Source: Pseudovirgaria hyperparasitica
Taxonomy: Eukaryota
Length of the DNA stretch: 64,000 bases
Assembly: GCA_010093815.1 (NCBI GenBank)
Contig: ML996579.1
Direction: 5' to 3' (one strand)
Position 1 is the first letter of the stretch. Each line of letters starts with the position of its first letter. Below are positions 37,043 to 64,000 of this stretch, piece by piece. The translations under genes were made by a program, and so were the position numbers. Under the pieces are notes generated by a model, which worked only from the letters and a program-made list of their open reading frames with translations, had not been told where the DNA came from and searched no databases.

Positions 37043-38244
37043 TCAGGATCTCTGAATATCAACATCTTTCTCCGCCGTTGCTCGTTTGACATAAAGCACA
37101 GCCTGGCCGAATCTTTCTTGGTCCGCAACGCAGTCGTACTCGTCATAAGAGCTCTGAAGAAGCTCCAAGGTACGAGGGGAATCTGCGTCAGCCCTTTGAA
37201 CGGAAGATGTTAATAGGACAGCATCCGCAGAGTCGTTGAACTTACCATAGATACTTTGGATCGGCTTCTTTCATTCTGTCCCAAAACATAATGGCAGGTC
37301 TTGTAAGTTCTAGCGTAACCTGCTTGACGGGCACTTCCGCACTGCATGAGATGACGAGAGTGGAAGTGTCCACTTTCAAGAATGCCTCCGGGTTGTTCAG
37401 AATCGTGATCCCGTGCTTGACGAGTACCGCCATATCTGCCTCGGTGTATTCTGGGTCCTGAGCAAAACATTGAACTTGGTTTCCGAGCAATCGTTGCAGA
37501 GACAGAATCAATGCATGCTGAGACGCTGACCTCACCTGTCCTTCCATCAAGTCCCATGAGATATTGCCACATGCAAATGCGACAATCTGTCGGATCGGCG
37601 CCGAAGCGTTTGCAGCCTTGACGATCGCATGGAGTAATTTCAATTGGTGACTGGCTTCTAAGCTCTTCATGACCGCCATAAAGTGCGCTTCGCACTCATC
37701 GACATCCACTAGCTTTTCTGGGACCTCATTAATTATCTCATGTGTCAACTTGTCTCGCAATGAAACGTAGTGGTAAATCCTCAAGCTGCAGTATGCAATA
37801 CGAGGAACAGACATATCGGTGATAGTTGTCAGACTTTGGAAGGTGAAGTAGTAGATAAATGGAGATTCCCTAAGTCCGTCAGCGAGTGGCCGACCAAGCT
37901 TGTGTCAGAAAAAGCGCGGTTAAAGGGGGATCATACACGATGTATTCATGCTTCGGACCGATGGGAATCGTAGACCCAGTCTCCACGACAAATTCGACTT
38001 CACGTCCATCTAGGCCTCGAATGGACACTGTACCAGCCTCTCCGTCTAGTGCTCGCAACTGCTTCATGAGCCCTTCTATGGCCTCGCGTTCAAAGATTCG
38101 AGCACCGGATCTGTACCATGACTGAATGTTTGACTGGATTTCGGTCAAGGCTTGAGTTCTCTCGCCATCGTACTCAGGATTATCGGATAACTTGTCGTAA
38201 ATCCTGAACTCATCTCCCTGGTAGATACTCTTGCCTATGATCAT
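37043..38244 (-). CDS. SRR1-like domain protein (3 exons)
   Basis: QIVAFACG...SQHALI...CFAQDPEYTEAD...GITILNNPEAFLKVDTSTLVIS..PVKQV...RPAIMFWD. Introns 37936..37870 and ~37245..37193 give a continuous frame ending DADSPR...AVLYVKR...TGA at 37043. Confidence 0.8.
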
Positions 38245-42136: not shown

Positions 42137-42137
<1 letters not shown>

Positions 42138-42231
<94 letters not shown>

Positions 42232-42241
42232 NNNNNNNNNN

Positions 42242-42339
<98 letters not shown>
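42138..42339. repeat. (AAAG)n tetranucleotide microsatellite interrupted by an assembly gap (N 42232..42241)
   Basis: Perfect GAAA repeats on both sides of 10 Ns; the true length is unknown. Confidence 0.98.
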
Positions 42340-45300
42340 GAGAAGGAGACGAGCCCAAGAAAACGACGTTGTTACTATACTACACTGGCGTATCCCGGCA
42401 TGAATTTCACATAATCGTTTGTTCGTCATGTCGTGTGAATGAGTCCCTGTATACATACAAGTCTACCCGACGTTTAACCCAGGACAATACCGTAGCCAGT
42501 ATACTATGGTAAGCCAAATGAACTTTTCGAAAATTCCGGAAAAGGACATGAAACCTATATTAAGTACCCACCGCAAAGTGTACCCTTCGCAGCCAACGCA
42601 CCAAGCACATCAATCATATGCCCCTCCCCACCACCAGCATGTATCCAAACGAAGCATTACTTATCAACACACACGCGTGCACGCCATGATGATAAAGCGG
42701 TATAACATGATGCGGGGATGACACTGGGCATATGCTTGGAGCGGCGAGAAGGGCCAAAACGTTGTGATATACACATGGATATATACAACTATAAAATAAA
42801 TCTGTGCGGTATCAAACATGCATAAAACAGAAGTCCTTGTTGAGGTCAGTTGCTAGAGAAGGATAAGACCGTGGCGATTGATGCTGGATCTGTACTTTGA
42901 GATTGGGGTGAGGAGATAGGGAGTTTGGGGTGGGATGTGAGATGGTACATGGCGATACAGTATGGTTGTTTGGGAAGGTGGAAATGTTACTTTCTCTTAA
43001 TTCAACCTCATTTTGGCAGACTATGTATGTGCTCACGACAGAAATCCAAATTACTCATCTGTGATGGCGTGTCTGGTGTCCCTATATATACATTACTATT
43101 TCAAATATATATGTGTGTGTGAAGCCTATGTGCCAGGTATGAGTGCTTGAAGGGACATGGATACGTACTTCGAGGGCAAATATATCGATAAGGATTCAAA
43201 AATAGATACGTATAAATTAACATCACGTTTCGTGGAGGCCGGTAATAACGAAATGAACGATATTAAAGGGATTTAATTCAACTGGAGGTAGACAGGGTTT
43301 GGGATATGAGACTACGATTGGGACATAAATGATTTGATAAGATTGACGGAGGGTGTGCTGTGATATTTATTTAGAGCTCATGTTCGTACTTTATCGTTGA
43401 GTCTGCTCTGTTATCTGCTCTAATTGAACCAGACCTCTGGCATTCCGCGTGATGGTTGGTGAAGTGTAGTGCCTATCGAATGCTATGTTATGTTGAAAGG
43501 CCTGGAGTGCTGGTGGTAAGTATTGCTACTGAGTCTGCTACTGGGACTAACGTGAGAGGCGAACAGTCTGGAGGCGAAGATGCTTTAAGGATTGAAGGGT
43601 TAGATAGACAGGAGCGTGTTGCGTAGTGGGATAAGTGGGAAGGGTGCTTTCATGGGGATTTTCAATCGGCCCGTTCGCCAGAACTAGATGTACGTATTTG
43701 CGCGAAAGCAAGTATGTGTGGTTAGGAGGATGTATTTTGGAGAAGGGCGTGCCAGTGGCGTGATTCACCAGATGAGTCCCCCTTTTTAAGGCGTGCATAG
43801 TGCATGGCCAGCTGCAACCACATCCGTGTGCTTGTACACGATTAGCAGAGGTAAGCCGTTTCGACAATGCCGCTCATCTCTATACATGGTTGTTGCTGCT
43901 GCTGATCATCATTATATACAACGCCTTGCGACGGAACGCAGAGGACATGGAACACGATGGCCATTCTGACGACGCGGAGCTCAGAATCCGTACCCTTTGC
44001 ATGTCGATGCAGCCAACATCCTGTTTCTGAATCAAGTAGAGTTGGTATTGACGGAAGAAAGTATGTCGCCAGTGGGAGGAAGTTGTGGTATTTATAGATT
44101 AGTACCAGCGTACGTGCCCACAAGAAAAATGCGGCGTTGTGAACGAGCCCGGGATGTACGCATGACGTGCAGGACACATTAGAGCTCTCCACACGAAATT
44201 AACAACAAAAGATGGAAACGGGGAAAGCGAGAAGGCGTGAATGAAGGACCCTGGTTACATGATGCCTCTCCAAAGGATGGCTCGTCAAATTATGCCTCTC
44301 CGCGCAACTTTCACAGAGGCCAGATATGTAGAAGTGAAGAAGGAAGACGTGAAACTGCCGTGATTCGCGGGGAATGTTCTCGTCCTCTAGTCGGTGCTAT
44401 TACTCCATAGTATAGGTAGCCGTGACTATGGATATCATCCGATTACCTATATCAGCCTCAAATAGAAATATAAAGGGCCGAAGTCGTGCGCTCTGGAAAC
44501 TCACTATCTAGCCGAACTGCTCGGGCCGTATATCCTGGCATCATCCTGGCGTGGCCGGGTAGGATAGCAGTTGCTATTAAGAAGACGATGTTGATGACAA
44601 TGAGTTTGACGTTCTAATAGCCATCCTGGCTGGTCCTGGCGGTCCTTGCTGTTCTGCCGGCGATGGTCAACACCACGGTGGTAGCGGGAGCGCCGGTAAG
44701 CAGCCACCACGCAGGACGGTCCCGATCCATCGAACACAGACCCAGGACAACAGCAGCACACGACAGCAGCACACAACAGCCCAAGCGATGTCTGGAACGA
44801 CTGTATTACAAACGTCATGCGCCATACTGGGAAAATGTGGAACAGGAGCCAACAACCGCTGTCCAGGTCTGCCCAGCAGCGAGGTGAAAAATCTCACACA
44901 AATGGTGAGGGATTTAGCACGCATGTACCTTGCGATGATCACTCCGTACAGGCTGCACAGTGGAACTTGTTCTGCAGCGATGACAGGCCTTTCTTGTTGG
45001 CGCCATGAGCCAATGTGCTGTCGCCGATGAGGTGCTGTTCGCATCGATGCGCCTCAGCTCAGCGCTGGCGGCAGTTCCTTAATGGCCCGTGTTCTGGGAG
45101 CAGTGTGGCTAGATAGACTCCCCGGATTTAGGTCTGCTCACAGACATGAAAATAGAAGCACAGATTAAAGGACTGGTCGGTGGTCGGCGCAAGATGATGG
45201 TTATGATCATACTGGAGACGTTGTGTCGAAAGGCAAGTTGGTGTAGGCAGGACGAGAAACTGAGCGCGTGAAGCCGAACCACATGACTTGACAGAATCAA

Positions 45301-48300
45301 CGAGGTTATTGATGCATCGACTGGCTTAACAAATATCATCTTGACGATGATCATGATATCTGGGGCAAAGTCGGAAAACACTCCGATACTTTCAAGGTAA
45401 GACTGTGGCTACTGCTGCGGCATAAACCGTGGGAAGAACAGAGCAGAGCAGAGCAGAGACGCGGTTCAACGCCCACCCAGGCGGTTTCTGGGACGGCGTT
45501 TTGGTATACGGCTTGCCGGCAAGGCTCTGGCTCTGGTTCTAGCTCCAGAATGCAAAGCAAAGGTATTCATAGTACAAAACGTGGGCTACGGTACAACAGT
45601 GTTACTATTCTTAGGGTGTAATTGACGGAGTTTGCTAGTATTTAGAGGCGAGTCGTGTGGTGTATACGCGGCGCCAGTGCCGCAGGTCCCAACCAAGTCC
45701 ACTCGTCCACTCAGTCACTCATCTCCGCGTCCACTCAACAGACTTGCTAGCCTGCTGCAACTCGCGCCAGGCATCTCGCTCCTACCTGGCATGAAAAGTC
45801 ACAAGGAGGAGCCAGAGCCGGAGATGGAAGCCTTCTAGAAAATTAAGTTTGGGCGCGTGGATCGCCGAAAGCCCATGGTTTCACGACACCCAAAAGGGAA
45901 ACCTTCTAGAAGACTTCGTTGGTTGCGCACGGCCCGATTGTCGCGGCATTTCAGAAATTGCGCCCCCTGGACGCCCCAGCCCCGTGTTTGTCCATCGGTC
46001 GTATGTGTAATATGCAACATGCAGGCGTCTCGTATACGGTATGGTATCCTTGAGTATGTGTCAACTTCTGTATTATCCTGATACGTCTCATTCAGTTGTT
46101 CAGTACTGGGAGTGGTAGGCTGTATGTGACTTGCATTTGTATGTAACGTGCAACGCATATCAACCACATACACAGCAAGTGTCTGCCTGCTGCATGTGCT
46201 GCAATGTGAACCTGCCACATAGCCCAAGCGGCACTGGCAACGGCTCCTGGCTCCTGGCTCTTGTGTCCAGTGGAAGACCGCCAGCGCTGATACCACAGCT
46301 TGATACAACTCCAAGCTCTCACTCCCCCCCCCCCCAACAAAACATACTGAGCTTAGGCCTGCCTCCACGAACGTGAGTGGGAAAGCAATCACCAAAGCTA
46401 TGATGATCATGACTTCATGTTTGTGTCCACGGCTTGCTGCCTCCGATTCATCTGCATATGAGCAGTCGGAAGGGAATCAAAGGAAGGAGAATTGAGGCTG
46501 CATACTACCGAGTCACGCGCGTAGTCGATATGCGTCGTATCTGGAATTAAACTTCCACCGTTCAGAGCGCCTGTCAAATAGCAAGCACGGAGATGAGCCA
46601 CCTAAGCTCCCGCGAAATGACCATCTTCGCCAGTCTTGTGCCAATCTCTGGCGCTACGTATAGATCTTTCTAGCGTTACTGAAATGATAATACTTGGCTG
46701 TTGGTTCCAAGAAGGTGCAGTTGCAATCCAGTCGATGCGGCTACGTGGAGAGTCCTGTTGTGTGTCGTGTCGTGTTGTGTTTATACATCGATCTACGGGT
46801 CGCTTACCGCATGCATGGCGAGTGCCCAAGGCGATCTGCGTTTTCCAGAAGTTCTGCATCCCGACATAATATATTAGACTCGCCATTCGGTTTAGTGAGT
46901 CTTCAACCCGTGCCTATTATTTCTCTATTTGCCCGGTAGCCTCGAGGTCTCTATCAAACTCGACAAATAAACTTTTGATATCTGGAAAATCTAAAAATAA
47001 CAAGCCGGCGCCCAAGAGTCCGAGCGTCAGCCGCGGTAAGGGGCAAGCAATTAGGGCGTCTAGTGGCATCAAGTGATATGATCAATTCTATACGTACCAC
47101 GTAGAAGCAGGATGGTGGGCATCCCGATCTGGATTGATGTCATGACAGTTATGCCGATTAACTTAAATGACATCCATTTGTTTCCTCCCCGGGCACGGAC
47201 TCGCGAGGCCCAGCGACAAATGATCAGGCCGGGCCCCTTGCCGAAACCCTAGCGTGGCGTCTCCCAGAGAAATCTCAAACAAAAGTGTAATATGGGTGGA
47301 GTGGGGACATGCTTCTCTGCCGGCGCCGGTCCGGTTCATGCTGCCACTGGTGACATGACATGGACGACGTTTCGGCACACTCTGTCGACAGTCTCAACTG
47401 TCTATTGCTCACAAAACCTGTGAGCCTCCAGACTGGTGCGTCTACATGCAAGTAGCAACATGGGCAAAAGTTTTATCTCCCATGCCATCCACACGGAAGG
47501 CAGTGATTTGCGCGCTGCCGAGTGTCTCCGAGTGACAGCGAATAGCGAATCGTAGCTGGATGGTGTCCTCTCGAGTGTACTGCCGAATAGATTGAGGTAA
47601 AATGTATTTACCGCACTGCATCAGGTGAGAAGAGAGTGAGCGGTGTACACTATACATAGTACGACGCGGACAAGTGTTAGTAGGTTGTTTACTATCTTTG
47701 TAGTAGATACATGCCATGCCCAAGCGTATCGCACGCCCATGATGATGCCAGTGTCAAAGGGTCTGTTGGTCTGCGACGACGGGACCTATTGGAGGACTGT
47801 AGTACATACTCACAGTTTAGAACCTGGGTGTGGTGGTCTCAGCGTGATTTTAGAAACCTTCCTGCATCCTTCTAGCGCGCTTCTAAACGTGGTCATAGCA
47901 ATTCCCCCAAGGGCTCTTCTTGCTTGGGTATACCTATCTAGGTACCCACGTACCTACCTCCTACCCCATCCTCCTGCAGCGCCGCGCGAAGGAGGTGCAT
48001 CTCAACTATGGCCAATGTGGATAGTCCAGCCTCTCATTACGTGTTGATTAATATGCTGGAGACCTGGACGGGACAGCGATACTGCAGCGCGCATACGGCC
48101 TTGAGCAGTCTTGGTCAGCCGGCTCCTTCCATCGGTGTTCATTCGCCAGGTGTGTATATATATGTGTGTTGTGTGAAAGACGATTGCTATGGGCGCAGGA
48201 GTGCTTCAGCACAGACAGAAACCCCCTTGCCCCCCCCTCCCTGGTAAGCCTTTTCTCGTCGCGACGGCACTCTCTAAAACGGCTGCAAGGATGGCTTGCC

Positions 48301-49567
48301 CATAGTGTAGAGCCATTGTTTCTAGCCGCCATCAGCCACCATGATGCTGCAATCTCATCTTGACTGTCCTCTCCGCCTGTGATCTACTTAACGAAAGCCT
48401 CTGCCACCCTGGCTTGCGCTGTGACTTCTCGTTGTTACACGTACCAACATCTTCTGCCTTGGACACGCTGACGACTGAGCGTGGATCTTTGCCATATCTG
48501 CCAGCTTCGCCATCTCCAACTTCCTGGGTAACCTTTGTGTACACAACTACGCAGCCATATATCGTTTGTGTGCAGTCGGGCATCAGCCATCCCTTACGCC
48601 CATTGAAATTGACTACTCAAAAGTCGACTGTGCCAGCCGGGGAACTGGCATCGCATAAATGTAAGTCGTCTTATAGAAGACTACGACCCTGCACGTAGCC
48701 GTCTTGTCTGGCGCTCACTGTGTTGATTAGCTTTCAGCCCTAAGTCTTTTCCGACCCGTCCGGGAGGCTGAGTCTTCTAAAAACAACTCCCGCATACAAA
48801 GCGCCTACTAAACGTAGCTACCACGAAGAACTTCAGCAAGAAAAAGAGGTGTGAGCAATCGTCGCTTTTTCACCACCATCGGAAAACGCCCGTGACGGAC
48901 AGTCATCTCCGAAAACACAGGTCCGAGGAAACAGCTACACCCTTCAGGACGAACGGCTGGCCTGAGCTTGCTCAAAGACGGAACTGCAGAGTCACACGAG
49001 AATTCTGAAGGTGCCTCGAATCACTAGACCGTGCAGGAATTGGTGAGCCACAAAGAAGCCAGACTATATATTATTCTCCGACAAGCGCAGGAACCCGGAC
49101 TGGAGCAGTTTGGCAGGACACACAGGACACAAAACAGATCGAGAGTTTCCATCGGGGAAAAAGGCAGCATACTCCAAAGTGACATATACGCCGCGATCAG
49201 CCAGCAGATTGAGTAGAAAGCGTATTCAGTGATAAAATCACGACAGAAATCTTGGGTGTGGGATCGAGGAATTCCAGCTCTCAAGCTAAAATACAAACTC
49301 CACTAGCTTCATTGACAACGTCGCTTTGCCCGCAGGGGAGAGCAAAAAAACAGAAGAATCCTTCCTAGCCGATCATTCCACGTTCGGCCTAGCGGGCTTG
49401 GCATTAACGCGACTCTTCGCTCTGCAGTGCCCGACAAAAGTACCCACGTACTTTCTCTCGTCGAATCTTCGTCACTCTCTACTCACCGTCACTTCTCTCG
49501 TGTCTTTGTTTCTTTCTCTTCGCGGCCTCTCTTGCTCTGACCCCTTCACTATTTCCATCGAAGAAAG

Positions 49568-49806
49568 GTATGTCGCCTCTTGCCCTACCCTTCCGTCCTT
49601 CTCCGACCGCTCTTGTCTCTCGCGTCAGCCTCTAGCTCACAGAAGCGCCTCCTTTTCGCCTGCTGGCTGGCTGCGAGAGACGTCAGCATCTACGCCTGGC
49701 ACCTGCAGAAACATACATTCCTCATCTCTCACATTCTCTATTCCACTCAACACCAACACATATTCTTTGGGCTCTTGCGGCCGTTGCTGACTTGGGTCCC
49801 TGATAG
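49568..49806 (+). other. Putative 5'-UTR intron of the C2H2 gene
   Basis: AG|GTATGT donor at 49568 after a CT-rich promoter-like tract (~49450-49560); GCTGAC branch at ~49785 and TAG at 49806. Confidence 0.5.
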
Positions 49807-50110
49807 TTGGAACATTCCTCAGCATTGACCCTCGAGCGATCCGGCACTTCCAGCTCTATACTGTGACGTTTGGACCCTTCACCCTCCAACGGTCGTTCAA
49901 ACCACCGTTCGAGTCTGCACGCGACGTCAACCCGCCTACCACTTCACATTACGCTCGCATATGCGAGTTGTAGTACCTGAGGGGTCTCTCGTGTCTACAT
50001 CCCATACCTCTAGTGGTGCGCATCCTCCTTTTCAGGTTTCTTGGAGCCCGAGATTTACCTCGAATATTCCACTCCTGTCTTCCAGCGAAGACCACTCCGC
50101 TCCTCATACG

Positions 50111-51651
50111 ATGATGCAACTTGGAACCATACTGAACACTAAACTGAACGCCATAGCAGGTCGACAAATGTCCTACGAAATGCAACACACAATGCAGCAC
50201 GAGCTCCAGCAACAGCCGCAATTTGCACCAGCTCCATACATCAACGGGCGGATAAAATCCGAAAACAACTCTGAACGAGGCGTTTCACCACATCCATCAG
50301 ATCATTCTTCGCGTTATTCTTCCCAGGCACCGCAGCCGCTGCAGTCCTACCCACAACCCATGACCAGCAACATGGCGAATGGTATTCATCGATACCCGTC
50401 TCCCACACACATGCAGAGCTCAATGCCGATGCTCAACAACTATGGTATACCAAATCCTCCCGATAACGGATATGCCCAACAAGCACAACAAGAGTCGCAA
50501 GGGCAAACGCCTGGACGGTCTGAAAACCCCCAAGGTCCCCCAAAAGCCTTTTCTTGCTCAACTTGTGGGAAAGGATTCGCGAGACGTAGTGACTTGGCTC
50601 GTCATGGTGAGTTATCATCACCGCCAAGAACTTGCACACATTTTAACACAACAATAGAACGTATTCACAGCGGTGTAAGGCCCCATGTGTGTGACTATCC
50701 TGGCTGTGGAAAACAATTTATTCAACGATCTGCGTTGACTGTCCACCAACGTGTCCACACTGGCGAGAAGCCTCACATGTGCGAGAGATGTGGCAAGGTA
50801 AGCGGTGCGCGACTTGAGGCCTAGGCTCAAATACTGACTCGGTTATTTCACAGCCCTTCAGCGATTCCAGCTCCCTAGCAAGACATCGACGAATTCACTC
50901 TGGGAAGCGGCCTTATAAATGTCCGTACGCCGATTGCCAAAAAACTTTCACCCGTCGTACTACCCTCACTCGCCATCAAAACCACCACACCGGCACTGTT
51001 GAGGAAGCAGCCGCTGCAACGGCCGCTGCATTAGCGTCTCGCCAGTCTGCTCCCAGTCGATCAACACGTTCCGATGTCGATGACTACTCTGAAACGCATT
51101 CGCCAATGCCAACGCCTTCGCCTCATGAGAGGCCGATGTCCATGTCACCTGCTGCTGGAATGCCTGCGGTACCACAGATGCATAGGCAAGCCTCCGACTA
51201 CAACTATATGGGTAATATGAATGTGCCGCCGCACCTCAGGAACGAGATGCCTCAACAGAGCCCGCGCGCTTCCCCATCTCTAGCACAGTCCTATGCTTCT
51301 GGCATGGCGCCCCAACCTCGAGTCACTTCTCACCCAACTGCCTTCAACCCTCCACCTATTCTAGAACCTCCAGCCACCTCAAACAATCATCAAGCTGGCA
51401 GCGCGAATGCTAGTCCCCATATGGGAACCATGGGATGGCAATCACCAGGACATCAATCAATGGCCTCACCTGGTGCCGGAGAGTCGTATGTCTACCCCGA
51501 GCACGCATACCAGCCGCACGCCCAAAACCAAAACATGTATTATAACAGCAACAATAACATCCGCCGACCAAACAGCACAGAGCCGGACCACCAATATGAC
51601 CCGCGCCAGCAACGAATGCCTAACGATATGTGGGCGCCACCTGTTCAGTAA
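50111..51651 (+). CDS. Four-finger C2H2 transcription factor (ZfpA/Cos1/Znf2-like by recall)
   Basis: Introns 50607..50657 and 50798..50853. Fingers [65 protein letters not shown] and [26 protein letters not shown]-rich flanks. An in-frame upstream ATG also exists at 49961. Confidence 0.93.
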
Positions 51652-52679
51652 ATATGACGAGTTCCATCCATTTTGTTCCTGTTTCATTAGGTGGTAATTG
51701 GGTCCAGAGGTTTACGCTATACCCTAGACACACGATTGTGAATTTCGATCGCACTTGCGCTACTCCGCGTTTTCCTTTATTGATAACAGATTCTAGCATC
51801 TGCAACTGTACCAATGTAGCTTCTTTTGTTTTCCCTAGGTACTCTTTTTGTTTGCACGCTGTGTTCGTGCCATTGCTTTCTGGGAGTTGGTCACACCTGC
51901 TGGAGCCCCAGTTACTACCTTGCCTGTATTAATGTGCTGGCGTCGGACAACAAGGTGGGCAGCAGGCGTCTCGGCTCTGAGGTACAGCATGATGTGGGAA
52001 TCAAGGACAATTTTTTCTGTTTTCTGATAGACTGGGGCCAAAAATGTAATCATCACCTGCTCCGTTAACGCGTTGATCTATCGCCAGACCCAAAGTTAGA
52101 AAGTGGCCGTGACTGTACACGCATGTACTCTATAATGTCTAATTATGTGGTTTTATGTTACAACGCAACCCATGTCTCTTCGGTGAGTCACGTGAACAGG
52201 AGCCCAAGTGATATCGAAACTTGCCGCAGACCGTGCTCCGAAGTAGACTAGCTCGTTTGACGCGAGGCTGTATGGGTCCTTGGTCGGTCCCAAGCAATCC
52301 CGCCAACATGCGCCCAAAAGCCCAGAAGCCATTACGACTCCTCTATTCGCCTTCACACGGCCAACCATTTCCTCTTTGCCATCTTCCAACTTCCTTCACC
52401 GTCGCCATTGTAACACGATCTCCTGCGCATACCTGCGACTACCACGAAGCGATCACTGTCTATTTCACCCTCACTCGCTTCGTCCGCTAGAACACTCGCC
52501 TCACCAGCCACAACGGAGCGGATCCGGAGCTCGAATCATTAGCCAAAGGACTAAATCCGAATTCGCTGGGCTCTCTGCCTCTATTTAGCCTTGTCTTCAT
52601 AGAGCTGTGATCAGACCTCCATCAGATAATTTACATCACCGCATAGTAGGATCTAGACGCCCTATCAGACCTACGCACT

Positions 52680-54568
52680 ATGTCTGGCGCTTTGAGAAGC
52701 ATAAAGAATGTCACGAAAGGATACTCCTCAGTAGAAGTAAAGGTTCGCAATGGTATGAAATATCTTTCACGACTTGCCGACAGCCCAACTGACGGTATCA
52801 GCTACAAGCAACGATCCGTGGGGCCCTCCGGGTTCTGACATGGCCGAAATTGCCTCGATGACCTTCAATAGGTTTGTATCTCTTGCAAGTAGAAAGACTA
52901 ACCTCCCAGCTGATACCGTTATAGCAACACCGATTTCTACCAAATCATGGACATGCTAGACAAAAGATTGAACGACAAGGGCAAGAACTGGCGACATGTG
53001 CTCAAATCCCTCAAGGTACTCGACTATTGTCTACACGAGGGCTCCGAGCTCGTGGTGACCTGGGCTCGCAAAAACATATATATAATCAAAACGCTGCGTG
53101 AGTTCATCTACATCGATGAAGAGGGTCGCGACGTCGGTGCCAATGGTAGGTCTGCCTCCTAAGAAGCTTGGGAAGCGTGCTAATTCACTCTTTAGTCAGA
53201 CACTCGGCGAAAGAGCTCACATCACTTATCCTCGATGAAGAACGATTGCGCACGGAAAGAGCGGACCGAAAGACTTGGAAGTCGCGGGTGACCGGATTGG
53301 ATGAGTATGGCCCTCCTGGAAGTCATCATCACGAGCCGCCGAAGCGACGCGAGAGGCCCAGACGGACTGACGAAGAGGATCTCGAGTACAAGCTCGCTAT
53401 AGAAGCCAGTAAGAACGAGGCAGAGGAAGACCGGAAAAGGCGTGAAAGAAACGCTGGCGCGGCCGATGACGACGACGATCTTGCAAAAGCAATCAAACTC
53501 AGTAAAGAAGAGGAAGAGCTTCGGCGACGAGAGCTGGAGGAGTCGAACGCAAACTCACTCTTTGATGATACCCCGAGTCAACCTGCTGCGTCGCAACCTA
53601 CCGGGTTTAATCAGGGGTACCAGCAGCAGGGAGCCGTAGATTGGTATGGAAATCCAGTAGATCAGCAGCAGTCACAGAACACTGGATTTCTTAACAACGC
53701 CTATTCCCAGCCGACCGGAATGCAAGGCCAACAAACAGGCTTTCAGAACGGTTTTGGTTATGGGTACCAGCAGTCGCAACAACCCCAACAGACAGGCTTT
53801 GACCAGTTTGCTCAGCAGAACTTCATGCAGCCTCAACAGACATCCTTCAACATGAATAATCCGTACGGACAACAGATGAATGGGGGTGGTTTTGGCCAAC
53901 AAGGTTCTTTCGGACAGCAACAGCAACAGGAACAACCACAACAGCCACAAGAGCAGCAAAGCACGCTGCAAGCTGGCAGCCATAACCCCTGGTCATCAAA
54001 CCAGCAACAGCAAGATTCCATGAAGCCGCAGCCCACCGGATCCAATAATCCATTCGCACCATCGTTCGGTAAGCCGCAGCAACAGCAGCAACAGCACATT
54101 CCGACACTGGGTTCCCTCCAGGAGATCCAAGAGCAAAAGACACAAACACAATTCAACAATCAAAACTTCAATCCACCCCTGTCTTTTGGCACACCACAGC
54201 AAGCACAGCCACAGAAACAAGCTCAACCTCAAGACCCGCATCACGCTCAACTCAACGCACTGCTGGCGTCGGGTGACGGCCAGGACACGTTCGGCAATAC
54301 AGGAAACCTTCGTATTCCCGCACAACACACGGCACCGGGCACGTTTGTCAATTCGGCTGGAGCTGGCCTGAACCGCTTGAACGCGAACCAGACGGGCAAC
54401 AATCCGTTCCTCAACTCGCAGTTCACAGGCATGCCCCAACAAACGGGTTTCACGCAAAATAGGCTGATGCCGGCGCAGACCGGGCCGGCTGGTGGTTTTG
54501 GTGGGAACAATCCGTTTGGGAGGCAGCAGGGTCAGCAGCAGCAAGGCGGGAGCTTGATAGATCTTTGA
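52680..54568 (+). CDS. ENT2: Epsin (ENTH domain, 2 UIMs, NPF motifs, clathrin box)
   Basis: Introns 52753..52801, 52872..52924 and 53146..53195. KVRNATSNDPWGP, KGKNWRHVLKSL, UIMs (LAIEASK, AIKLSKEE), NNPF x3 and C-terminal SLIDL. Confidence 0.95.
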
Positions 54569-55329
54569 GGTTTGCGGTGCATGCGGGGGGCGTGAGGAGT
54601 GATGAATAGTGAAGGGATGGTTTGAAAGAGAACTATGCGTCAAGAGCGTGGGCCTTCCATCTGGCTGGAATATTCTATCATTGGTTGGTGGGTTGGGATT
54701 GTACAGATTGAGATTAATTTTGCCCGGATTTGGTGATCGGATTTGTGTGGCTACTACTAGAGCACACTCGCAGGAGAGAGACACAAACCCTACTACCTAA
54801 CTACCTACCTACTACTTTGACTACTTAAATACCTATAGCTCTTTTTACTTTTCTTCTTGGGCTTCATTACACTATCGATGTCTCTCTCTATGCCGTTTCG
54901 ATCTCATACCGAGTCGTTGTCGGTGTATTTGTGTCTCTGCCTGTCTGTGCCTGCCGTTCTGTGAGTCTGTGTCTTCCATTTGTGAATCTCACGCGTTTTC
55001 AGAGACAATTTTCTTGTCTTGTCTTGTTGTTGGGTTATGCTTGGCTGGCTCTAGTCTTGTTATTGCTCTGGGCAGACCGTTTTTTTATGGGTTGGCAGGC
55101 TGTGCATAGATATGCCTGTTTGCATGTGTGAGAGAGGGATCAGATCCTACGGAAGCTGTGTGATGTGTGTTGTGTAGGAGCCGGGGAATTCGAGACTTGT
55201 TGTGGTGGTATTGTAAGAGCTGATCTTCCGGATCAAGACAATCAGTTGAAATGATGCTCTCTACAAGCAAAACACTCTTCTTGGACACGTTTAGCTGCCT
55301 GAACAACACCTTGGACTAAGTTTCCGATG

Positions 55330-56390
55330 TGTGTGACTAAAGTGAATCCTTCGATAGTTTAGATGGATAGAGAAATTCCAACACTTCTTACCAGGCAGAG
55401 TCAGTAAAGACTACGATTAATTGGGCTACTCTTATATATCTAAGTTCAAGGATCTCTCCATGATTCATAAGGATAGCGAGATGCAAGCGTTCTTTACTAG
55501 GTAGAGTCACTAAGAATTACCATTAATGGCAGTCTTTTAATATATATAACTTATGTATTTTCTCTTTAACTTATATAGATAGTAACGTCCTAGTACTTCT
55601 CTTTCGATAGACTTACTACTAACTATAATTAGAGATACTATTATATTATATCTAACGGTACTAATCTCTCTAAAGCTTACATAGATAACATATTCTAAGT
55701 ATTATCTACTAGATAGAACTAGTAAAGGATATAACTAAAGAAGCTACTCTAGTAGATCTAACGTATATATTTTCTTTATAGTCTAGATAGATAGTAAACT
55801 TCTAGTATTTCTTACTAAATAGATTTACTAATTACTATAATTAGATATACTATATTAATATAATTAATATAAGTAATTTCTCTATCATTTCTATAGAGAA
55901 TAGAATCTAAGTATATTTCTTTAGATAGAATTACTAATTATTCTAATTATAGATACTACTCTAGTATATCTAACTTAATATTTCTCTTCTAATTTAGATA
56001 GATAATAGAACTTAAGATCTTTCTTTTCTATATAACTACTAAATATTATAATAGAAGAAGCTATTCTAAACTATCTAACTTTAATATTTCTCTTTAATCT
56101 ATATAGATAGTAATAATCTTATATATCTAGCTAGAGTATTTTCTCTATAGATATTATAGATAGTTATATATTTATATATTTAGCTAGACTATTCTCTCTA
56201 TACTTTATATAGATATTACTAATATATATTTAATATATAAGTAGATCTTATGTCTGGTTATATAGATAGTATAAGTAAATTATATATAAGCTTAAGAGTT
56301 GCTTTCTATCTTATATAGATAGTAGAATTTTAGATGGATAAGATTAATAGAATATTCTCTTAAGTAAATAGATAAGTAGTAACATAGCGC
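55330..56390. repeat. AT-rich, RIP-like tandem array: seven ~106-bp units followed by five 53-bp units
   Basis: TAGAT(AG)-type anchor at 55364, 55470, 55576, 55682, 55788, 55894, 55999 and 56104 (spacing 105-106), then 56157, 56210, 56263, 56316 and 56369 (spacing exactly 53). Most anchors have a TCTCT-like pyrimidine motif 15 nt upstream. TpA-rich and CpA/TpG-poor. Confidence 0.85.
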
Positions 56391-56802
56391 TTTCTAATAG
56401 TAGACTACTTTAAATTTCGGTTAACTCAAGTCTACCGTCGTAGTATAAGATAATTAAACCTAGCTATGTATGACCTATATCGATTAAGTCTAGTAACTAC
56501 TTATACAGATTATAAGGACTATAAGAATATTAAAACTACTATTACGTCTAGATCTAAAGTAATATAACCCTCGTTGAAATGACGAGAATTAAAAGAGTGT
56601 CTACTGCATATATTAAGAAAGAATTCATTAGCGAGGCACATACTATGAATCGTTATTCATCACGTAGAATCTAGTAACACCGAGAAGGTTATTCAACAAT
56701 TGCTTCCCCTAAACATAGGGACCAAGGACAGTCATTAGCATAGCTAAGATAGCTTCTAGTATACATTTTTGATAGTGCCATCATCATGTACCGTTGCCGG
56801 GC

Positions 56803-58047
56803 TCAAGTAGACATGTCATCTGCTTTTCTCTTTCTTTCCAGCTCACTAAGGAAGAGCTCGCTGGTCGCGAACTTCTCCTCCTCGTGTCTTTGGGCGGCGA
56901 TGCGTAACGCTCGCATCTGTCCAATCAACCGGCGCTTCGACTTTATCTCTTCTAAGGTCATGTCCGGTGCCAGACTCAGGTATGGAATTACATACTCTGG
57001 GTAAAGCGCCATCAGCTCTGTCAAGGTTGTGCGGCTCTGATCAGTCTCTCCCATCGGGGGGTCGATGCCAAACCCCTGAGGGGCTGGGCCAGCGTCCTCT
57101 CCAAAGCCGATGTCAGGCCCAGTGTTGGTATGCTGCTCTTCGTGGACTGATCCCCGATTGGATTCATTGTGAGCTCCACTTGGAGCATTGAAGGTATTAT
57201 GATTGTCAATCGTATTTCTCGCTCCATTCCAACTGTCGTCGTTGTTGTTGTTGTTACTCCTATTTTTATTGTTTCTCGGAGCTTCGATGCCGTGAAGAGG
57301 GAGCGGTGCTTCTTGTACATTGCTACGTGGGGGACTGAAGCTGACTTGCCGTATTGGGTACCCAGAATCTATATACTGGATTTCGGGTTGGGAAGAATCG
57401 TTGCCTGTGAAATTTCGAGGGGACGATACGGTCGATGATTGCATCATGTGTCCTAGAGGTCTGGTCACGCCGCTGCCTTGAGGTCTTTTACCATCTCTTT
57501 GACTTTTGATAGTACTGTTATGCCGTTTGAGGCTTTCGTGAAGAGTCGGAAGATTCTTGAAGTCGGACAGAGCTTTGTCCACGTGAACTGCTTGTATGCC
57601 GAGATAAACCCCTTCTTGATGCTTTTCGGAAGGTAATGAACCATCACTCTGTGCCTTGGCTAGAACATGTTTGACAATGCCAGCTTTTGCGACGGCTGGA
57701 TTGTTGATACAGCGTGATAGAACAGAGATGGCTTTACAGAAGTCCTCTGGCCATTCACCATACTCTTGGTGGACCTTTCCGTCTTTGTACGGAGCGAAGA
57801 TGCCCGAGTACATTTCATGCAGTTCGGCGTGTGTCAGAGCCCAGTTCTTGCAAGCTGCTTCCTTATAGATAACAGATTGTGAGTTTGAGACTGTATTGGT
57901 GCGATCGTTATCAATATCATTGTTGAGCTGTGAGTTTTCCGCGATCGAGGGGAGAACAGGAGAATTCTGTTCAGCTTTGATCGAATCGCTTCTAGAGGCA
58001 GCCGATGACTGTGCGCGACGGCTTGATGCACGTGTAGTTCTTTTCAT
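56803..58047 (-). CDS. Hypothetical protein, orphan family paralog A (414 aa)
   Basis: Long intact ORF sharing motifs CKNWALTHAEL, EW, GIQAVHVDKA and YPEYVIPYLSLAPDMT with paralogs B and C. Confidence 0.8.
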   Translation of the reverse strand: MKRTTRASSRRAQSSAASRSDSIKAEQNSPVLPSIAENSQLNNDIDNDRTNTVSNSQSVIYKEAACKNWALTHAELHEMYSGIFAPYKDGKVHQEYGEWPEDFCKAISVLSRCINNPAVAKAGIVKHVLAKAQSDGSLPSEKHQEGVYLGIQAVHVDKALSDFKNLPTLHESLKRHNSTIKSQRDGKRPQGSGVTRPLGHMMQSSTVSSPRNFTGNDSSQPEIQYIDSGYPIRQVSFSPPRSNVQEAPLPLHGIEAPRNNKNRSNNNNNDDSWNGARNTIDNHNTFNAPSGAHNESNRGSVHEEQHTNTGPDIGFGEDAGPAPQGFGIDPPMGETDQSRTTLTELMALYPEYVIPYLSLAPDMTLEEIKSKRRLIGQMRALRIAAQRHEEEKFATSELFLSELERKRKADDMST

Positions 58048-60422
58048 CTTGATAGAAAAATGGCCGTGATGTTAGAACTTGAGATAGATAAATGCAATGA
58101 TTGGAGGAGGGTGAGTTTGGGGATAGTGTTTGTAAGACAGGAAAGTAGGATCTATATTGAGAAGTGTGGGTTACGGAAGCCGGCATGAGATAACCCGTGA
58201 ACTTGAGTGTTTTGCCGAACAGTCTTAAGGGGTCGCTGTGTTCCTGTCTATCGGACTGTATTTAACCATGGTTTTCACATTATTCCTCGCAAACAGCTCC
58301 TTAGCTACCGGTCCTCTCTAATCATAGTTCCAAAGAGTTACACTTAAATAGTTGGGACTACGTATCACCAGCAACTTAGACATTATGGCCTTGGAGCCAA
58401 AAAAAGCAGCCATAAGTCTTGATATACTTAAAGATCCAAAGCTCGAAGTAAACATATAAGCACCGGATGGAATTTTTTGAGGCGACGGACGAGCAAGACA
58501 AAGGAGAATCTGGGTGGATATGTGATCTGCTTCCACAGAATCTCAGGAAAGATAATCTCAAAAGATTCTAGTTGATGCTAAGGATATTCTTCCAAAGCGC
58601 CTTAAAAAACTTTATGATTCTTCTAAAGTATGACAGTGGACACGAGATTATGATCCTATTAGGACAATATAGGTAGATTCAAGCCACTTTTCCCCCTTAT
58701 AGTTGTGTCCTGAGCTAATGTGACATTCTTAAATGTTGTGATACCAGATGAAGTCATTGTTCATCTCTTTCAAGATCCGTGATATGCATCAAATCTAGGC
58801 TTTCTCTACGCACGTAACTGTGCAATCAACAATTGACAGTGTCATACCCCTTTCAGCCACCGAGCTATTGAAACGTTGGGGTAGAAGGATATAGTCAAGG
58901 CTTAAGGGGTTATATTAGCTGAGCATACAGATTTGCTAAGAAGAAAAGTTGAGGTGGAATCTACACGCGTCTTGTTAAGTGTAAACTGACTTGTAAGATT
59001 GTGTATGATGACTTTCTCCAATATATGTCGCCTATAATATAATAAGCTTCGTCTTGTGAATAACCATGAACTAATCTTTTGAGTATATTCTCATTTGTAA
59101 TAGGCGTCGCTACAATGCGGCATTGTACATCGGAACAGTGGAGTCTGACTCTTAGATATCAGAGGTGCTATTTGGACGGTGGGTCGTCGTTAGTCTTCCC
59201 ATGATTGATCCACCTACTATGTACCGATTACACCGAAAACGAGGCTCTAATATCCTGGAGCTACAACGGATATATATCGAACAAAGCATACTAAGGCAGA
59301 GCAGCTTCTCGTACCCTCCGATTCGACAATTTTAGCGGTAAAGAAACTAGACCAGCCATGGCGAACGAACCAAGGGAAAGCGAGAACGGTGAAACTCACG
59401 TGGTAGTGGTGATAGGCCTGGCAAGTACAACAGCAGAGATATCCAGCTGATCCACTATTGCGTAGAACGCACCACGATAATTAGATATTCCACTGCCAGA
59501 GCACCTCAGACGAACCGTAAGTCAATCGTCCTTCATTGCTTCTATCAAAGGCCTTCCTGACAGTCTCTCCGACCTTTCAGTAGCTCCATGAAGGAAGTCG
59601 CTAGAAAACCTTTCTCTAAAATTCGGTAGACACAAATGCTTAGTCTCGGGTGACTCCTTCTCCACCACTATTAGACGACACGAGAATCTCCTTTCATATC
59701 TTCGCAGGACCAAATTATACACACATTGACAATGATGAAGGTGGAATATACATGGCCTAAACAGCCAGCCTCACAAAATTAAAGACTATCATGTCTTTGT
59801 ACCAGAAGTTCAAGATATCATCCCTGTGTTATGGCGATATAGAGATCTGACAGATATCGAGACTATAAAAGCGTTATTGATAACATGATGGCTTTCAATA
59901 TTACATAACAAGTCAAAGATATGCCCGATGACCTCTCTTTGTACGAGCTTCGACCTCATTGAAAGAAAAGGATGAACATCATGTGTAGGATACCATTCTG
60001 GGTCTGGTCAGGAAGTCAGTGGGAACTATTCTAGATCAAGGTCGGATAAATCATTCTGTTATTGAAGAAGCTATCTATGTGCGTTCGTGGGGCAAAAGTC
60101 GCCTTCAACGATCTCACTACAGTACATGCTGCTCTGCTAAAGAAGGTGAGATACTACCAAGTATCTTCTAGTCTTTGTCTAGTGTGCATGTGAAAATACA
60201 ATATTACATTGAACGAAACCTCGACGTCCTGCCAAAGGGGGATTACAGCAGGAAACAAAAGCAGCTTAAAGCTCGAATCAATATCGAAGTGACAAGACCT
60301 TCAACCAAGATGACAATCCGATATGAACGCCATCAATGACACAACGCCCTTCCACAGCAACCAATGCCATCAACAGTGCCTAATCTTCACCAATTTTCTT
60401 TCAACCCTCAATATACCTATGT

Positions 60423-61805
60423 CTATCCCTCGGCAAGTTCTTCATCCCCAGTTTCATCTCCTGCCATGCTATTATCATTGCCTTCGTCCTCCAATGCTCC
60501 AGCAATCCTCTCTCGACCCTCGAGAAAAAGTTTAGAAAGACCGAGTCGAGCCTGCTCCTCAGGGCTCTCGAATTTCGGCAAGCTCCTCATGTAGTCGATC
60601 ATGAGGACCTTTGTGTTGAGATCCGTGAAACTCATGGCCGTATCAAGTGTCAGATACGGAGAGGAGAAGTGAGGGAGGAATCTCGCGAGATCTTCAAGCG
60701 TATGGAATGTGTCGTGGTTAGCAAAACGAGCATAGTACTCAGGGAGATTGTGGCTGGAAGTAGGCACAAGCTGGTTCTTGTTGGCAGTCTCAGAGCTCTG
60801 AGGGTCATGGTCGATGGAGCTGCTGGCCCTGTCATTTGAAGGTGGAGAAGTGGAGCTGTTCTCGCGCGACGCTTCAGAGCTTTCTTGCCTGTTGCTATCG
60901 ATGGTGTGTTCGTCTGACTGATTCATCAGTAATTGGTCATATGGTGGAGCATGCACGTTTCCGTTCTGTAGCATTGTCTCACCGGGTTGAGTATCCGCAT
61001 CTCCATGAATCATTGCCCCGTTATGGAGATGGTCAGACGTAGTAGAATCATCTGCATCTCTGATACTGAGTCCATTTTCAGAATTACCATCGTTGACATC
61101 ACTGCCATGGAGGCTGCGATGTTGATTTCCCTCAGAAGCGTTGGGTCCACGACGGGTGCGGGTACGTCTGATGCTTTCGTGATATGGCTGGAGGCCGTCG
61201 TTGTCACTCAGTTCGTCGTCCCAACGCGACTTACGCTTCTGGGGCCTGGGTAAGAAAATTTCGTCTAGTTCTGTTTTGCTCTTTTGGGTAATCTCGTCCA
61301 GTAACTTGGGCTCTCTCGCAATTGTATCACAAGCTGCATCGATATCCCCTCTCTTGACACCACATTGATTTTTGTGGGAATTCTTTCCCTTGCGATCCTT
61401 TGTATGCTGGAGGACGACTATCCTTGCGATTTCCGGCAGATTCGTAGTCAATTTAGACAGAGACAAAAGACTGTGAAACAGAGTTCCCGGCCATTCATGA
61501 ATGGAAGAGAAAGCTATACCATGCTGATTGACGAATACATCGTCCTTGGAGAACATAGTTCCTAGGTCTGCCACCGTGAAGTCCCAATTCAGGCAAATCT
61601 TTTGTATAATATCGACGATACGCTGTGGGTGAGCTTCTGAAACAGACTCTATGGTTATCGATGGCCTGCTGTCGCATGATTCATCGTCAGATCTATCTGG
61701 TGTTACTTTTGACGTCGAAGTGGACCTCTCGTCGCTCTTGGGAGCAGTGCTACTCATCAGAGGTGTGGACCCTCCTTCCGAGTGTTGTGGGGATGATGGA
61801 TCCAT
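60423..61805 (-). CDS. Hypothetical protein, orphan family paralog B (460 aa)
   Basis: Long intact ORF with CLNWDFTVADL, EW, GVKRGDIDAA and LPHFSSPYLTLDTAMS; basic NLS-like PRPQKRKSR. Confidence 0.8.
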   Translation of the reverse strand: MDPSSPQHSEGGSTPLMSSTAPKSDERSTSTSKVTPDRSDDESCDSRPSITIESVSEAHPQRIVDIIQKICLNWDFTVADLGTMFSKDDVFVNQHGIAFSSIHEWPGTLFHSLLSLSKLTTNLPEIARIVVLQHTKDRKGKNSHKNQCGVKRGDIDAACDTIAREPKLLDEITQKSKTELDEIFLPRPQKRKSRWDDELSDNDGLQPYHESIRRTRTRRGPNASEGNQHRSLHGSDVNDGNSENGLSIRDADDSTTSDHLHNGAMIHGDADTQPGETMLQNGNVHAPPYDQLLMNQSDEHTIDSNRQESSEASRENSSTSPPSNDRASSSIDHDPQSSETANKNQLVPTSSHNLPEYYARFANHDTFHTLEDLARFLPHFSSPYLTLDTAMSFTDLNTKVLMIDYMRSLPKFESPEEQARLGLSKLFLEGRERIAGALEDEGNDNSMAGDETGDEELAEG

Positions 61806-62931
61806 CCTTGAGTAACGACAAAAATTTGATACGTAGAGGTCTATGGTGCGTATTGAGAGTATAAGAGGCGCGTGGCGGTTCTAATGTCTTGGCAACAAAT
61901 TTGAAAGCTATGACGGAAGTAAACAAGACAGGGCGTGGGACGTAGGAGATCTACAGGAACTGTGTGTATTCCTTCTTTTCCTATAGGTACAGCACATAAC
62001 AAAGGTGCCCACCACTACAGATCTATGTAGTATACTAGGATACACTTCACTTGTATATCAGCACGCACATGTCACTCTGCTTATAGATGAGTTCAATATC
62101 GCTGGGTGGAGGAACAGTATACTCCGAATCTGAGGAAGATGAATGCAAAATAAAGACTTACTACGAGCAGCTTCTGCAATATGGTAACATAATATCTACA
62201 ATATGCGCTTATTTACAACCGGGGCGCATCCTGATAGTCCTCTTATCAATAGCACAAACTCCTCCAGACTCGAGACAAAAAGTGAGCAAACTTGCTTCGA
62301 GGTGTAGATTCCCTCAACTCTATCTTTCCGAGGGTGATATATTGCTATGATCTCCACGTTTCAAATCGTCCCGAAGACTGAAATTGTTGAGGATGAACAG
62401 TGGACTGTATCAGGCTACCCCTGAGCTATGAAAACTCACTTTGATGATTCTTGACAAGGGAAGTGGGTACTGGAAAGTTCACCCCAATGAGATCGATTAT
62501 CATAGAGATGAGAAGAGCAGCTATTGGAAGACAACTGTGTTACCCAACGGAAGAGCCACTGATGAACTGTGTTCGCACTCATTATTACTTAGAGGGTAAT
62601 TAGGGTCAGTGATCGATTCAAACTACAAAGTGCTTAGAAATGGATTACGAGCATAGCATTTCTAGGGAACGAGTTATAGCACGGTCGTGCACGCCGTAGT
62701 CATAGTCATGTAGATCTGTTGTCCCGGCGACCCACTTCACTCCGGAGTGTCTTATCGAGCTACAGGGTTTTCGTCTTGTCAAGTCCTTCCCTGAGCTCCA
62801 CTAAACAAGTTCATACACTACCAGCCACTCTTCTCAACGACACTCTTATGTATGTAACAAGCAGTGATTATGTAAGATCTCAGCACAGTCTAGTCCTAAC
62901 TTCACGTTTAGCTGCGCTCGTGTTCTCGAAG

Positions 62932-63819
62932 ATGGCCTCTCGCCGCAAATGCAAAGATGCTACGGCCGTCCGCATCGACAACGATATCTCCGAAATATGT
63001 CGAATTTGGGGTATGACATACTTTGAGCTCGAAAGACTTCTTTCCAGCAATGGATTGAGCAACTCCAGTGGCAAACCCACGCCCAATATCAAAGACTGGG
63101 CAGTTACAATAAGCAGATATCTGAAGAGATTGGCCACTCTCGAAGCTGATCCACAAACTGCTATGGGACTCATTCTTTTCGAATCAAAGAAAAGAAATGA
63201 TGATGATGCGCGTACTTTCCATGCCTTTAGGGGCATTCTTGGTGTTGACGTGGATCGTGCTGTAAAAGCTCTGGAATCTCGCAATGGTGCTGCTCATCGA
63301 GTGGGTACTATCACCCGACCCCAGGAGCGCACTACGGGCCCTACGAATGAAAACATCAATCAAGGCAATCAAAATAGCCACCAGTTGACCGCCCATCAGG
63401 CACCACTCAACTCAAACAATCGAAACGGCCAGCCGGCCATTACTGAAGGTCCTATACGCAACGCAAATGCTCGCCCAAATATTCCTAACATGGCCCCTCC
63501 TGTTGATCGCAATGGGCTTCCACCTCTCCACGACGTTTCTCTGCAGATGGCATTCAGCGAGTTTTGGCCACGTTATGCAATGCCCGCGCTAGGAATTCAC
63601 GGGGCAATGACGACTAACGAGATTAACGTCAAACTTGAGTTCGTCCAGCATTTGATGGACCTGGAAAGGAGTGAGAAAGCAGTGGTACAGAAAGAGGCAC
63701 AAGCAATACAGAGATTGGTGGACGCGGAAAAGCACCAGGTCACCCTCGAGAAGTTGGAGCTGAACAAGCAGTATCTGGAGGCGATCAAGAGGGAGAAGCA
63801 GATGAGGGGGGAGATGTAG
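62932..63819 (+). CDS. Hypothetical protein, orphan family paralog C (295 aa from ATG 62932)
   Basis: CRIWGMTYFEL, DW, GILGVDVDRA and WPRYAMPALGIHGAMT, then a coiled-coil-like C-terminus. A putative 5'-UTR intron 62850..62911 (GTATGT...CTAAC...TAG) argues against the longer TTG-start ORF. Confidence 0.8.
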   Translation: MASRRKCKDATAVRIDNDISEICRIWGMTYFELERLLSSNGLSNSSGKPTPNIKDWAVTISRYLKRLATLEADPQTAMGLILFESKKRNDDDARTFHAFRGILGVDVDRAVKALESRNGAAHRVGTITRPQERTTGPTNENINQGNQNSHQLTAHQAPLNSNNRNGQPAITEGPIRNANARPNIPNMAPPVDRNGLPPLHDVSLQMAFSEFWPRYAMPALGIHGAMTTNEINVKLEFVQHLMDLERSEKAVVQKEAQAIQRLVDAEKHQVTLEKLELNKQYLEAIKREKQMRGEM

Positions 63820-64000
63820 AGATTGGAAGACGACGTGGCCTCGATAAATCCTATGGACATGGCGATGGTCAAGATACGTGTGCTTGCATTAGTAAGGCGA
63901 AAGGAAGCTACATCATGCTGCTTACCGCTTTGAAAACAATGTCATCATCAAGCCTCTGGCTTTTAGGGATCGGAGGCATGTTAAAGAGAGCGTGATCGGA

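Follow-up and report, generated by a model that had tools for sequence, protein, structure and literature searches.

What are the three intact open reading frames (ORFs) that lie close together on contig ML996579.1 of Pseudovirgaria hyperparasitica (assembly GCA_010093815.1), within the 64,000-nucleotide stretch analysed here as a whole and called the window? A preliminary description of this DNA had proposed that these ORFs, named A, B and C, are old, diverged paralogs of a two-domain protein family that could not be recognised. The ORF list places all three where that description had put them (Table 1), and every motif string that it quoted was found in their translations. Judged by their sequences, A, B and C are confirmed as diverged paralogs with two conserved modules. 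The best explanation overall, to which we give a probability of about 0.65, is that one lineage-restricted orphan gene gave rise to all three by old tandem duplication and that they encode soluble two-module proteins, for which an adaptor role is inferred.

The three proteins have in common an N-terminal block of ~110 residues and a C-terminal block of ~45-80 residues, with a low-complexity linker between them. BLASTP aligned A and B over two collinear blocks (E 4e-5 for the N block and 1e-5 for the C block), A and C over the N block (E 0.018), and B and C over the C block (E 7e-4). The similarity was also compared with shuffled controls by Smith-Waterman alignment, using 1000 shuffles per pair, six same-domain pairs and six control pairs that set an N-domain against a C-domain. 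Same-domain pairs gave z values of 4.2-13.1, and the observed score was reached by 0/1000 shuffles in five pairs and by 1/1000 in the A-C C-domain pair, while the N-versus-C controls gave z -0.7 to 3.2. Finally, hidden Markov models (HMMs) were built from two copies at a time and run on 1573 six-frame fragments of the window. The omitted copy was the top non-training match every time, with E 6e-8, 1.1e-8 and 4.6e-7 for the N-domains of A, B and C, and E 4.7e-5, 1.4e-4 and 3.5e-4 for their C-modules, the best unrelated fragment standing at E 0.23 or worse. The proposed kinship is thus beyond chance in the shuffle test, and HMMs of the two aligned domains recover each member. Identity between the paralogs is 19-29% in the domain alignments, which hold 13 invariant columns in the N-domain and 9 in the C-module. 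A-B has raw scores of 74 (N) and 86 (C), while the two pairs with C score 59/70 (N) and 49/56 (C); at the sequence level, A and B, which lie on the same strand, are mutually closest, and C, which is divergent from B, is the outlier. Neither tblastn nor the six-frame HMM search found a fourth copy or pseudogene in the 64-kb window, where all other fragments stood at E 1.8 or worse with the N profile and at 5.4 or worse with the C profile. An internal duplication, for which the N-domain 'EWP...' and the C-module 'FWP...' were the lead, was also considered and rejected: the N-domain of A against the C-module of C reached z 3.2, but the hhalign profile-profile comparison gave E 0.49 and a probability of 0.1.

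Have these frames been kept open by selection? The in-frame codon log-likelihood of A, B and C is 0.119-0.170 bits per codon and is negative in both off-frames; in the codon reference, made of 11 conserved ORFs of the window, the values are 0.124-0.240, so that the three genes stand at the lower edge of this range or within it. Their guanine-cytosine (GC) content at third codon positions (GC3) matches that of the core genes. Where two copies carry the same residue at a position with degenerate codons, the same codon is used in 36/127 cases versus 41.8 expected under random synonymous choice, indicating that the synonymous sites are saturated. Since residues are conserved in spite of this saturation, amino-acid identities would be kept by selection at the protein level. 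The signature of repeat-induced point mutation (RIP) was not seen in A, B or C (composite index 0.96-1.67). We also estimate that a random frame of 414 codons stays open with a probability of (61/64)^414, or ~2e-9, which makes three frames open by chance unlikely. As we read the saturated synonymous sites, the open frames and the native-like codon usage, A, B and C are old duplicates whose frames are held open by purifying selection, which agrees with the earlier proposal.

Has the family relatives in other genomes? When the three full-length proteins were combined into a profile of 392 positions and run against 1,835,955,588 representative proteins, three matches at E 0.001 or better were returned, which are A, B and C themselves. 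Word-index protein searches found self matches only (1/3094 candidates in one search; 2/8000 scored in another, both from the window), and tblastn confirmed none of the 403 pattern matches of a metagenome DNA scan. Because the annotated proteins of this genome are part of the searched collection, the same genome apparently has no further annotated member. Of 7997 candidates scored for a fragment of the neighbouring epsin gene, 1597 were homologues at E 0.001 or better. Taxonomically restricted tandem gene families are a known phenomenon in filamentous fungi, and orphan families are common in fungal genomes. A, B and C resemble such families in being confined to one lineage, in having no Pfam domain and long disordered regions, and in standing in tandem beside RIP-affected repeats; they differ from typical orphan ORFs in that they keep two modules despite saturated synonymous sites, one of which is modelled as a compact helical domain. 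P. hyperparasitica is a filamentous ascomycete of the Acrospermales (Dothideomycetes incertae sedis) that parasitises rust fungi, and since this lineage is phylogenetically isolated and poorly sampled, the orphan status of a fast-evolving family is unsurprising. The fungus is described as a mycoparasite in PMC7082219, in the main text of which neither 'RIP' nor 'orphan' occurs.

The invariant residues of the N-domain are C, W, T, L, S, G, W, L, P, A, G, D and A. The C-module carries a Pro/aromatic motif with the rough consensus F-x-P-x-Y-x-x-P-x-L-x-L-x-x-x-M-T/S-x-x-E-I/L-N-x-K, which runs into a helix. The linker between the modules has 90-190 residues and is rich in Asn, Ser, Gln and Pro, and S, T, N, Q, P and G together make up 0.35-0.41 of each whole protein. 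Full-length C was modelled with AlphaFold2 (AF2), with A and B as the sole other rows of the alignment, and confidence was expressed as the predicted local distance difference test (pLDDT). In this model residues 1-8 are of low confidence, and the N-domain (residues 10-123) comprises helices at 10-26, 30-38, 58-70, 74-91 and 104-123, with a block pLDDT of 68-87 and a dip near residue 95. Residues 121-218 have a pLDDT below 50 and are modelled as disordered, in keeping with the variable, Asn/Ser/Asp-rich linker that had been described. A short helix (202-211) is followed by a low-confidence stretch across the Pro/aromatic motif and by a 67-residue helix (228-294) with a block pLDDT of 72-82. 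For the N-domain of A, the best AF2 model is a helical bundle with a small hairpin (pLDDT 79.5, predicted template modelling score 0.74), and the order of elements is alike in the C and A models: two helices, a small hairpin, and three or four helices. The tails differ, that of C being a long charged helix, that of A a short helix, and that of B acidic with 9 Pro/Gly. The claim that the C-domain ends in a charged helical or coiled-coil tail agrees with the long modelled helix of C. A coiled-coil tail is marked by a heptad periodicity of hydrophobic residues over 28 residues or more; it is not confirmed by a crude heptad-contrast test, which was non-significant in all copies (shuffles reaching the observed value: 479/500 for A, 44/500 for B and 136/500 for C). 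The maximum hydropathy over 19 residues is 0.62-0.99 in A, B and C, with no membrane-like segment, and the mean over the first 30 residues is -1.39, -1.21 and -0.42, respectively. This hydropathy calculation revealed no hydrophobic N-terminus, and so no signal peptide, in any of the three, which argues against a secreted effector.

We then compared the proteins with known families and folds, Pfam membership being defined by an hmmscan score at or above the gathering cut-off of the family. With whole proteins and E up to 1, no family was reported for A or C, and only PF22488 for B, at 14.3 bits versus a cut-off of 27; with the six domain segments and E up to 10, there were three unrelated sub-threshold matches (12.3-15.5 bits versus 27-27.5) and none for the other three segments. 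In a sequence profile search of the PDB, the N-domain had no match and the C-module a single one, at E 1.3. Foldseek found nothing in the PDB at E 0.001 or better for the model of full-length C or for the N-domain model of A (best E 1.9), nor in BFVD for the latter. In the ESM Atlas neither A nor the N-domain of C had a usable feature match, and the structure rows (TM score at most 0.51) were generic helical phage tail proteins. VIA-align, run over 48,161 chains, returned for full-length C only generic long helices, with Z up to 6.8, the matches of its long helix to solved coiled coils included. For the N-domain of A it returned three chains at Z of at least 5 and none at Z of at least 8, with CbbX (3syk_A; Z 5.7, root-mean-square deviation 3.2, 79 aligned) as the best and p97 (9ox9_A) at Z 5.1; according to the tool's own note, such Z values are below the noise level for helical models. 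These four approaches (Pfam, PDB profiles, Foldseek, VIA-align) yielded no significant match, which supports the conclusion that no named protein family matches A, B and C, as had been stated at the outset.

Could the three proteins belong instead to an already known family or fold, as a highly diverged branch that evolves too fast to be recognised by sequence? One candidate would be a free-standing helical domain akin to the one found C-terminally in AAA+ ATPases, or to another small helical bundle that binds protein or DNA. We consider this unlikely, but AAA+ ATPases do recur among the structural neighbours. Going by their titles, some two thirds of the 50 VIA-align rows listed for the N-domain are AAA+ ATPases aligned over their C-terminal helical part, which we take to be the lid subdomain, and further AAA+ entries are present in both Foldseek PDB lists. 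The low identity between the paralogs also speaks for a fast-evolving family. The AAA+ lid is a helical subdomain that follows a P-loop ATPase core with Walker A and B motifs. The lids of CbbX and p97 resemble the N-domain, as modelled, in being small helical bundles of similar size; however, A, B and C contain no ATPase core, no Walker motif and no AAA/P-loop Pfam match, identity to these proteins is 6-8%, and the Foldseek E-values are above 1. Only ~20-60 residues precede the N-domain, and they are hydrophilic over the first 30. The N-domain models thus point to a resemblance in shape only to the AAA+ lid, and not to membership. Other neighbours of the N-domain model are a DnaD-like domain (VIA-align Z 4.4) and the N-terminal domain of p68, the B subunit of DNA polymerase alpha (2keb and 4e2i, Z 4.7 and 4.3), which is a helical protein-interaction domain of ~78 residues. 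The p68 match differs in being below significance, with 8-10% identity and no sequence match, and A, B and C lack its phosphodiesterase/OB part. All Z values of this kind lie under the noise bar, identity in the alignments is 4-18%, and no Pfam domain, P-loop or other, accompanies them; together with the empty Foldseek and PDB profile searches, this stands against descent from a known fold.

A Myb/SANT-like helix-turn-helix, to which the W..T..EL pattern of the N-domain had led us, was tried separately. In Myb/SANT domains, tryptophans recur ~18-19 residues apart in a three-helix unit of ~50 residues. The invariant tryptophans of A are 30 residues apart (W18 and W48 of the segment) and there is no third conserved one, so that the Myb/SANT spacing is not seen. 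No Myb-type family appeared in Pfam at E up to 10, the PDB profile search of the N-domain was empty, and the 50 VIA-align rows listed include no Myb/SANT or homeodomain-like domain, which does not speak for this candidate but is no disproof of the fold.

If A, B and C are tandem duplicates of an orphan gene, how might their products work? They would act inside the cell, and probably in the nucleus, since each protein has at least one Lys/Arg cluster (ERKRKA in A; PQKRKSRW and RRTRTRR in B; SRRKCK in C). They could be modular adaptors or regulators in which the helical N-domain would serve as a specific binding module, and the C-terminal motif with its helix as a docking or self-association module, and the three copies may have become sub- or neo-functionalised. 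Taken jointly, this functional reading is tentative, and we would sooner bet against it than for it: a soluble, possibly nuclear, modular adaptor stays a guess. The nuclear DNA- or chromatin-binding oligomer suggested by the preliminary description would likewise be a guess, drawn from the basic clusters and the architecture only.

Several points weigh against an orphan adaptor family, some of them on the side of function. The Lys/Arg clusters are short and unvalidated as localisation signals, the Pfam scans of A, B and C found no DNA-binding, enzymatic or localisation domain, and the heptad test lends a coiled coil no significant support in any copy. The structure models come from a three-sequence alignment; that of full-length C has a mean pLDDT of 59.5, and the other four models of the N-domain of A reach 55-65. 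On the side of lineage restriction, further copies were searched for as DNA in the 64-kb window, which ends 181 bases past C. The nearest non-self homologue of the epsin gene is 79% identical (in a short contig), and among named genomes the closest reach 69-72%, a sign of a poorly sampled lineage. With paralogs as dissimilar as these, orthologues of the family could be undetectable or unsampled.

The family is new in the sense that no known family or fold could be assigned to it; we do not claim a new kind of biological system. If it is truly without relatives, it represents a lineage-born or hyper-diverged folded domain, present in three copies under selection, and it would offer material for studies of orphan-gene origin and possibly of the biology of rust hyperparasites. 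Its practical weight is limited: orphan families are frequent in fungi, the searched collections hold no closely related genome, and no phenotype is attached to the family. We give little credence to a bolder scenario in which the two-module family arose or diverged beyond recognition in the Acrospermales or in Pseudovirgaria and was then triplicated, to become a nuclear or cytoplasmic recognition-regulatory module that is tied to rust parasitism or to self/non-self discrimination and whose N-domain fold has no solved relatives.

Is the cluster rather an accessory island that varies between strains, or cargo carried by a mobile element, and does it serve in conflict (in allorecognition, meiotic drive or host interaction, for instance)? 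As had been reported, it adjoins RIP-like DNA: a 1-kb AT-rich block with strong RIP indices lies directly beside it (Table 1) and separates the epsin gene from gene A. This block is structured as a degenerate periodic repeat (55541-56324), with 8 copies of a 44-nt core at a spacing of 53/106/210 nt and periods of 212 and 53 in Tandem Repeats Finder. In the 2.4-kb spacer between A and B (58048-60422) there is no ORF of at least 90 amino acids, GC is 0.39-0.44 versus the 0.45-0.55 usual in the window, the RIP indices are borderline (TpA/ApT 0.72-0.98) and no remnant of a paralog is detectable; this spacer may be decayed former sequence. The 1.1-kb spacer between the divergent genes B and C holds no ORF of that length either. 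The upstream kilobase of A and the B/C spacer share no promoter motif above chance, the counts of shared 9- to 12-mers (19, 6, 1 and 0, versus shuffle means of 11.8, 3.6, 0.8 and 0.2) being within the shuffle maxima. Besides the RIP-like block and the low GC of the surrounding spacers, the absence of orthologues from the profile search of representative proteins and a HET-domain gene 20 kb from the cluster would suit cargo or a conflict locus.

Cargo of Starships and other large elements is recognised by two signs: element boundaries, and a neighbouring transposase or captain tyrosine recombinase (DUF3435). Scans of the 17 large ORFs of the window, and of 31 among 69 smaller ORF fragments, turned up no transposase, no tyrosine recombinase (DUF3435) and no other mobile-element domain. 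The 69 fragments have at least 80 amino acids and come from 36.9-49.4 kb and 54.5-64 kb; of the 38 outside the scan, 19 overlap the frames of A, B and C, and 19 either belong to a (GAAA)n tract or are the shorter of overlapping alternatives. There are no long direct or inverted repeats between 40000 and 64000 besides a microsatellite and the AT-rich periodic repeat, in a window that ends shortly after C. Fourteen of the 17 large ORFs have domains that are commonplace in eukaryotes or fungi (MetRS, nucleotide-sugar transporter, DEAD helicase, Nuo51, MYST acetyltransferase, GH31, HET, C2H2 and others), and an epsin/ENTH gene lies immediately to the left of the cluster. A, B and C themselves match the core genes in codon usage and GC3, bear no RIP signature, show by their synonymous saturation a long divergence, have no other annotated copy among the proteins of their genome, and contain no HET, NACHT or other incompatibility domain and no signal peptide. 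Cargo or a conflict function is for these reasons improbable, and the mobile-element, meiotic-drive or incompatibility role once suggested for the cluster is not borne out by the scanned ORFs, the flanking sequence inside the window or the proteins.

That the three ORFs are non-functional, being chance frames or decaying relics annotated as genes, is scarcely credible: no RNA sample is on record for the stretch, contact with spliced contigs is limited to C, at low depth, and more than a third of each protein is of low complexity, but neutral DNA would not be expected to yield three frames of 295-460 codons with two collinear conserved blocks, native-like codon usage confined to frame 0, and residues conserved despite saturated synonymous sites.

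The gene models of the tandem duplicates are given in Table 1, along with the conserved segments and the RIP-like block. C could also be read from an earlier ATG, at 62848, which gives its longest frame (323 amino acids). A GT..AG intron in the 5' leader of C, present in one contig of run X3 (depth 3.9, 114 letters on the shorter side), splits or removes this ATG, and the coding start of C is therefore placed at 62932. The public protein collection holds proteins identical to A, B and C (414, 460 and 295 amino acids), each as a singleton cluster, and that of C also starts at ATG 62932. An X3 contig also spans 63526-63988, across the end of C, with no differences. Run X1 is a DNA run, and the record of X3 and X4 does not state RNA; since X3/X4 contigs omit eight GT..AG introns in two neighbouring genes, whereas X1 contigs do not, we took X3 and X4 as transcript assemblies. 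These data are consistent with low-level transcription of C and splicing of its leader. B has no contig cover in the assembled runs, which is uninformative on its expression, and the cover of A, which coincides solely with its (GTT)n/(AAC)n coding microsatellite, is equally uninformative.

Table 1. Positions of the A, B and C genes, their conserved segments and the adjoining RIP-like block in the window.
Feature	Position	Strand	Details or basis
Gene A (P0001)	56803..58047	(-)	single-exon ORF, 414 amino acids
Gene B (P0002)	60423..61805	(-)	single-exon ORF, 460 amino acids
Gene C, coding region (P0004)	62932..63819	(+)	295 amino acids, start ATG 62932
A, N-terminal conserved segment, residues 52-178	57514..57894	(-)	alignment, model, leave-one-out HMM
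A, C-terminal conserved module, residues 335-414	56806..57045	(-)	alignment, leave-one-out HMM
B, N-terminal conserved segment, residues 55-185	61251..61643	(-)	alignment, leave-one-out HMM
B, C-terminal conserved module, residues 360-460	60426..60728	(-)	alignment, leave-one-out HMM
C, N-terminal conserved segment	62953..63312	(+)	alignment, AF2 model, leave-one-out HMM
C, C-terminal conserved module, then long charged helix	63520..63816	(+)	alignment, AF2, leave-one-out HMM
62-nt intron in the 5' leader of C	62850..62911	(+)	GTATGT...CTAAC...TTTAG; joint 62849->62912
RIP-like AT-rich block, A side of cluster	55501..56500		GC 0.23, TpA/ApT 1.41-1.51, (CpA+TpG)/(ApC+GpT) 0.17-0.21

An (AAC)n/(GTT)n microsatellite (57235-57255) codes for the Asn run of A, and short contig pieces are attracted to it and to 54071-54096. 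A spurious joint, 54096->57235, is found in all three runs, including the DNA run, which calls for caution in estimates of the expression of A.

Elsewhere in the window, the HET-domain ORF (34354-36927, 858 amino acids, E 3e-17) contains the only HET domain and has no sequence relationship with A, B and C. It is followed by an ORF fragment with an SRR1 domain at 37245-37904 (-) (E 1.9e-18). Otherwise the region from 38 to 48 kb has few long ORFs, and the fragments scanned there gave no Pfam match; it includes a long (GAAA)n microsatellite (42127-42350) that contains an assembly gap of 10 N. Two ORFs, at 7298-8734 (+) (479 amino acids) and 45838-46476 (-) (213 amino acids), have no Pfam family at E 0.001 or better, and the first has native-like codon usage. 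Finally, X3/X4 contigs over 48295-55504 give the exon structures of the two neighbouring genes, with introns at 48661-48730, 49566-49804, 50015-50158, 50606-50656 and 50796-50851 in the C2H2 zinc-finger gene, and at 52752-52800, 52868-52920 and 53145-53194 in the epsin gene.

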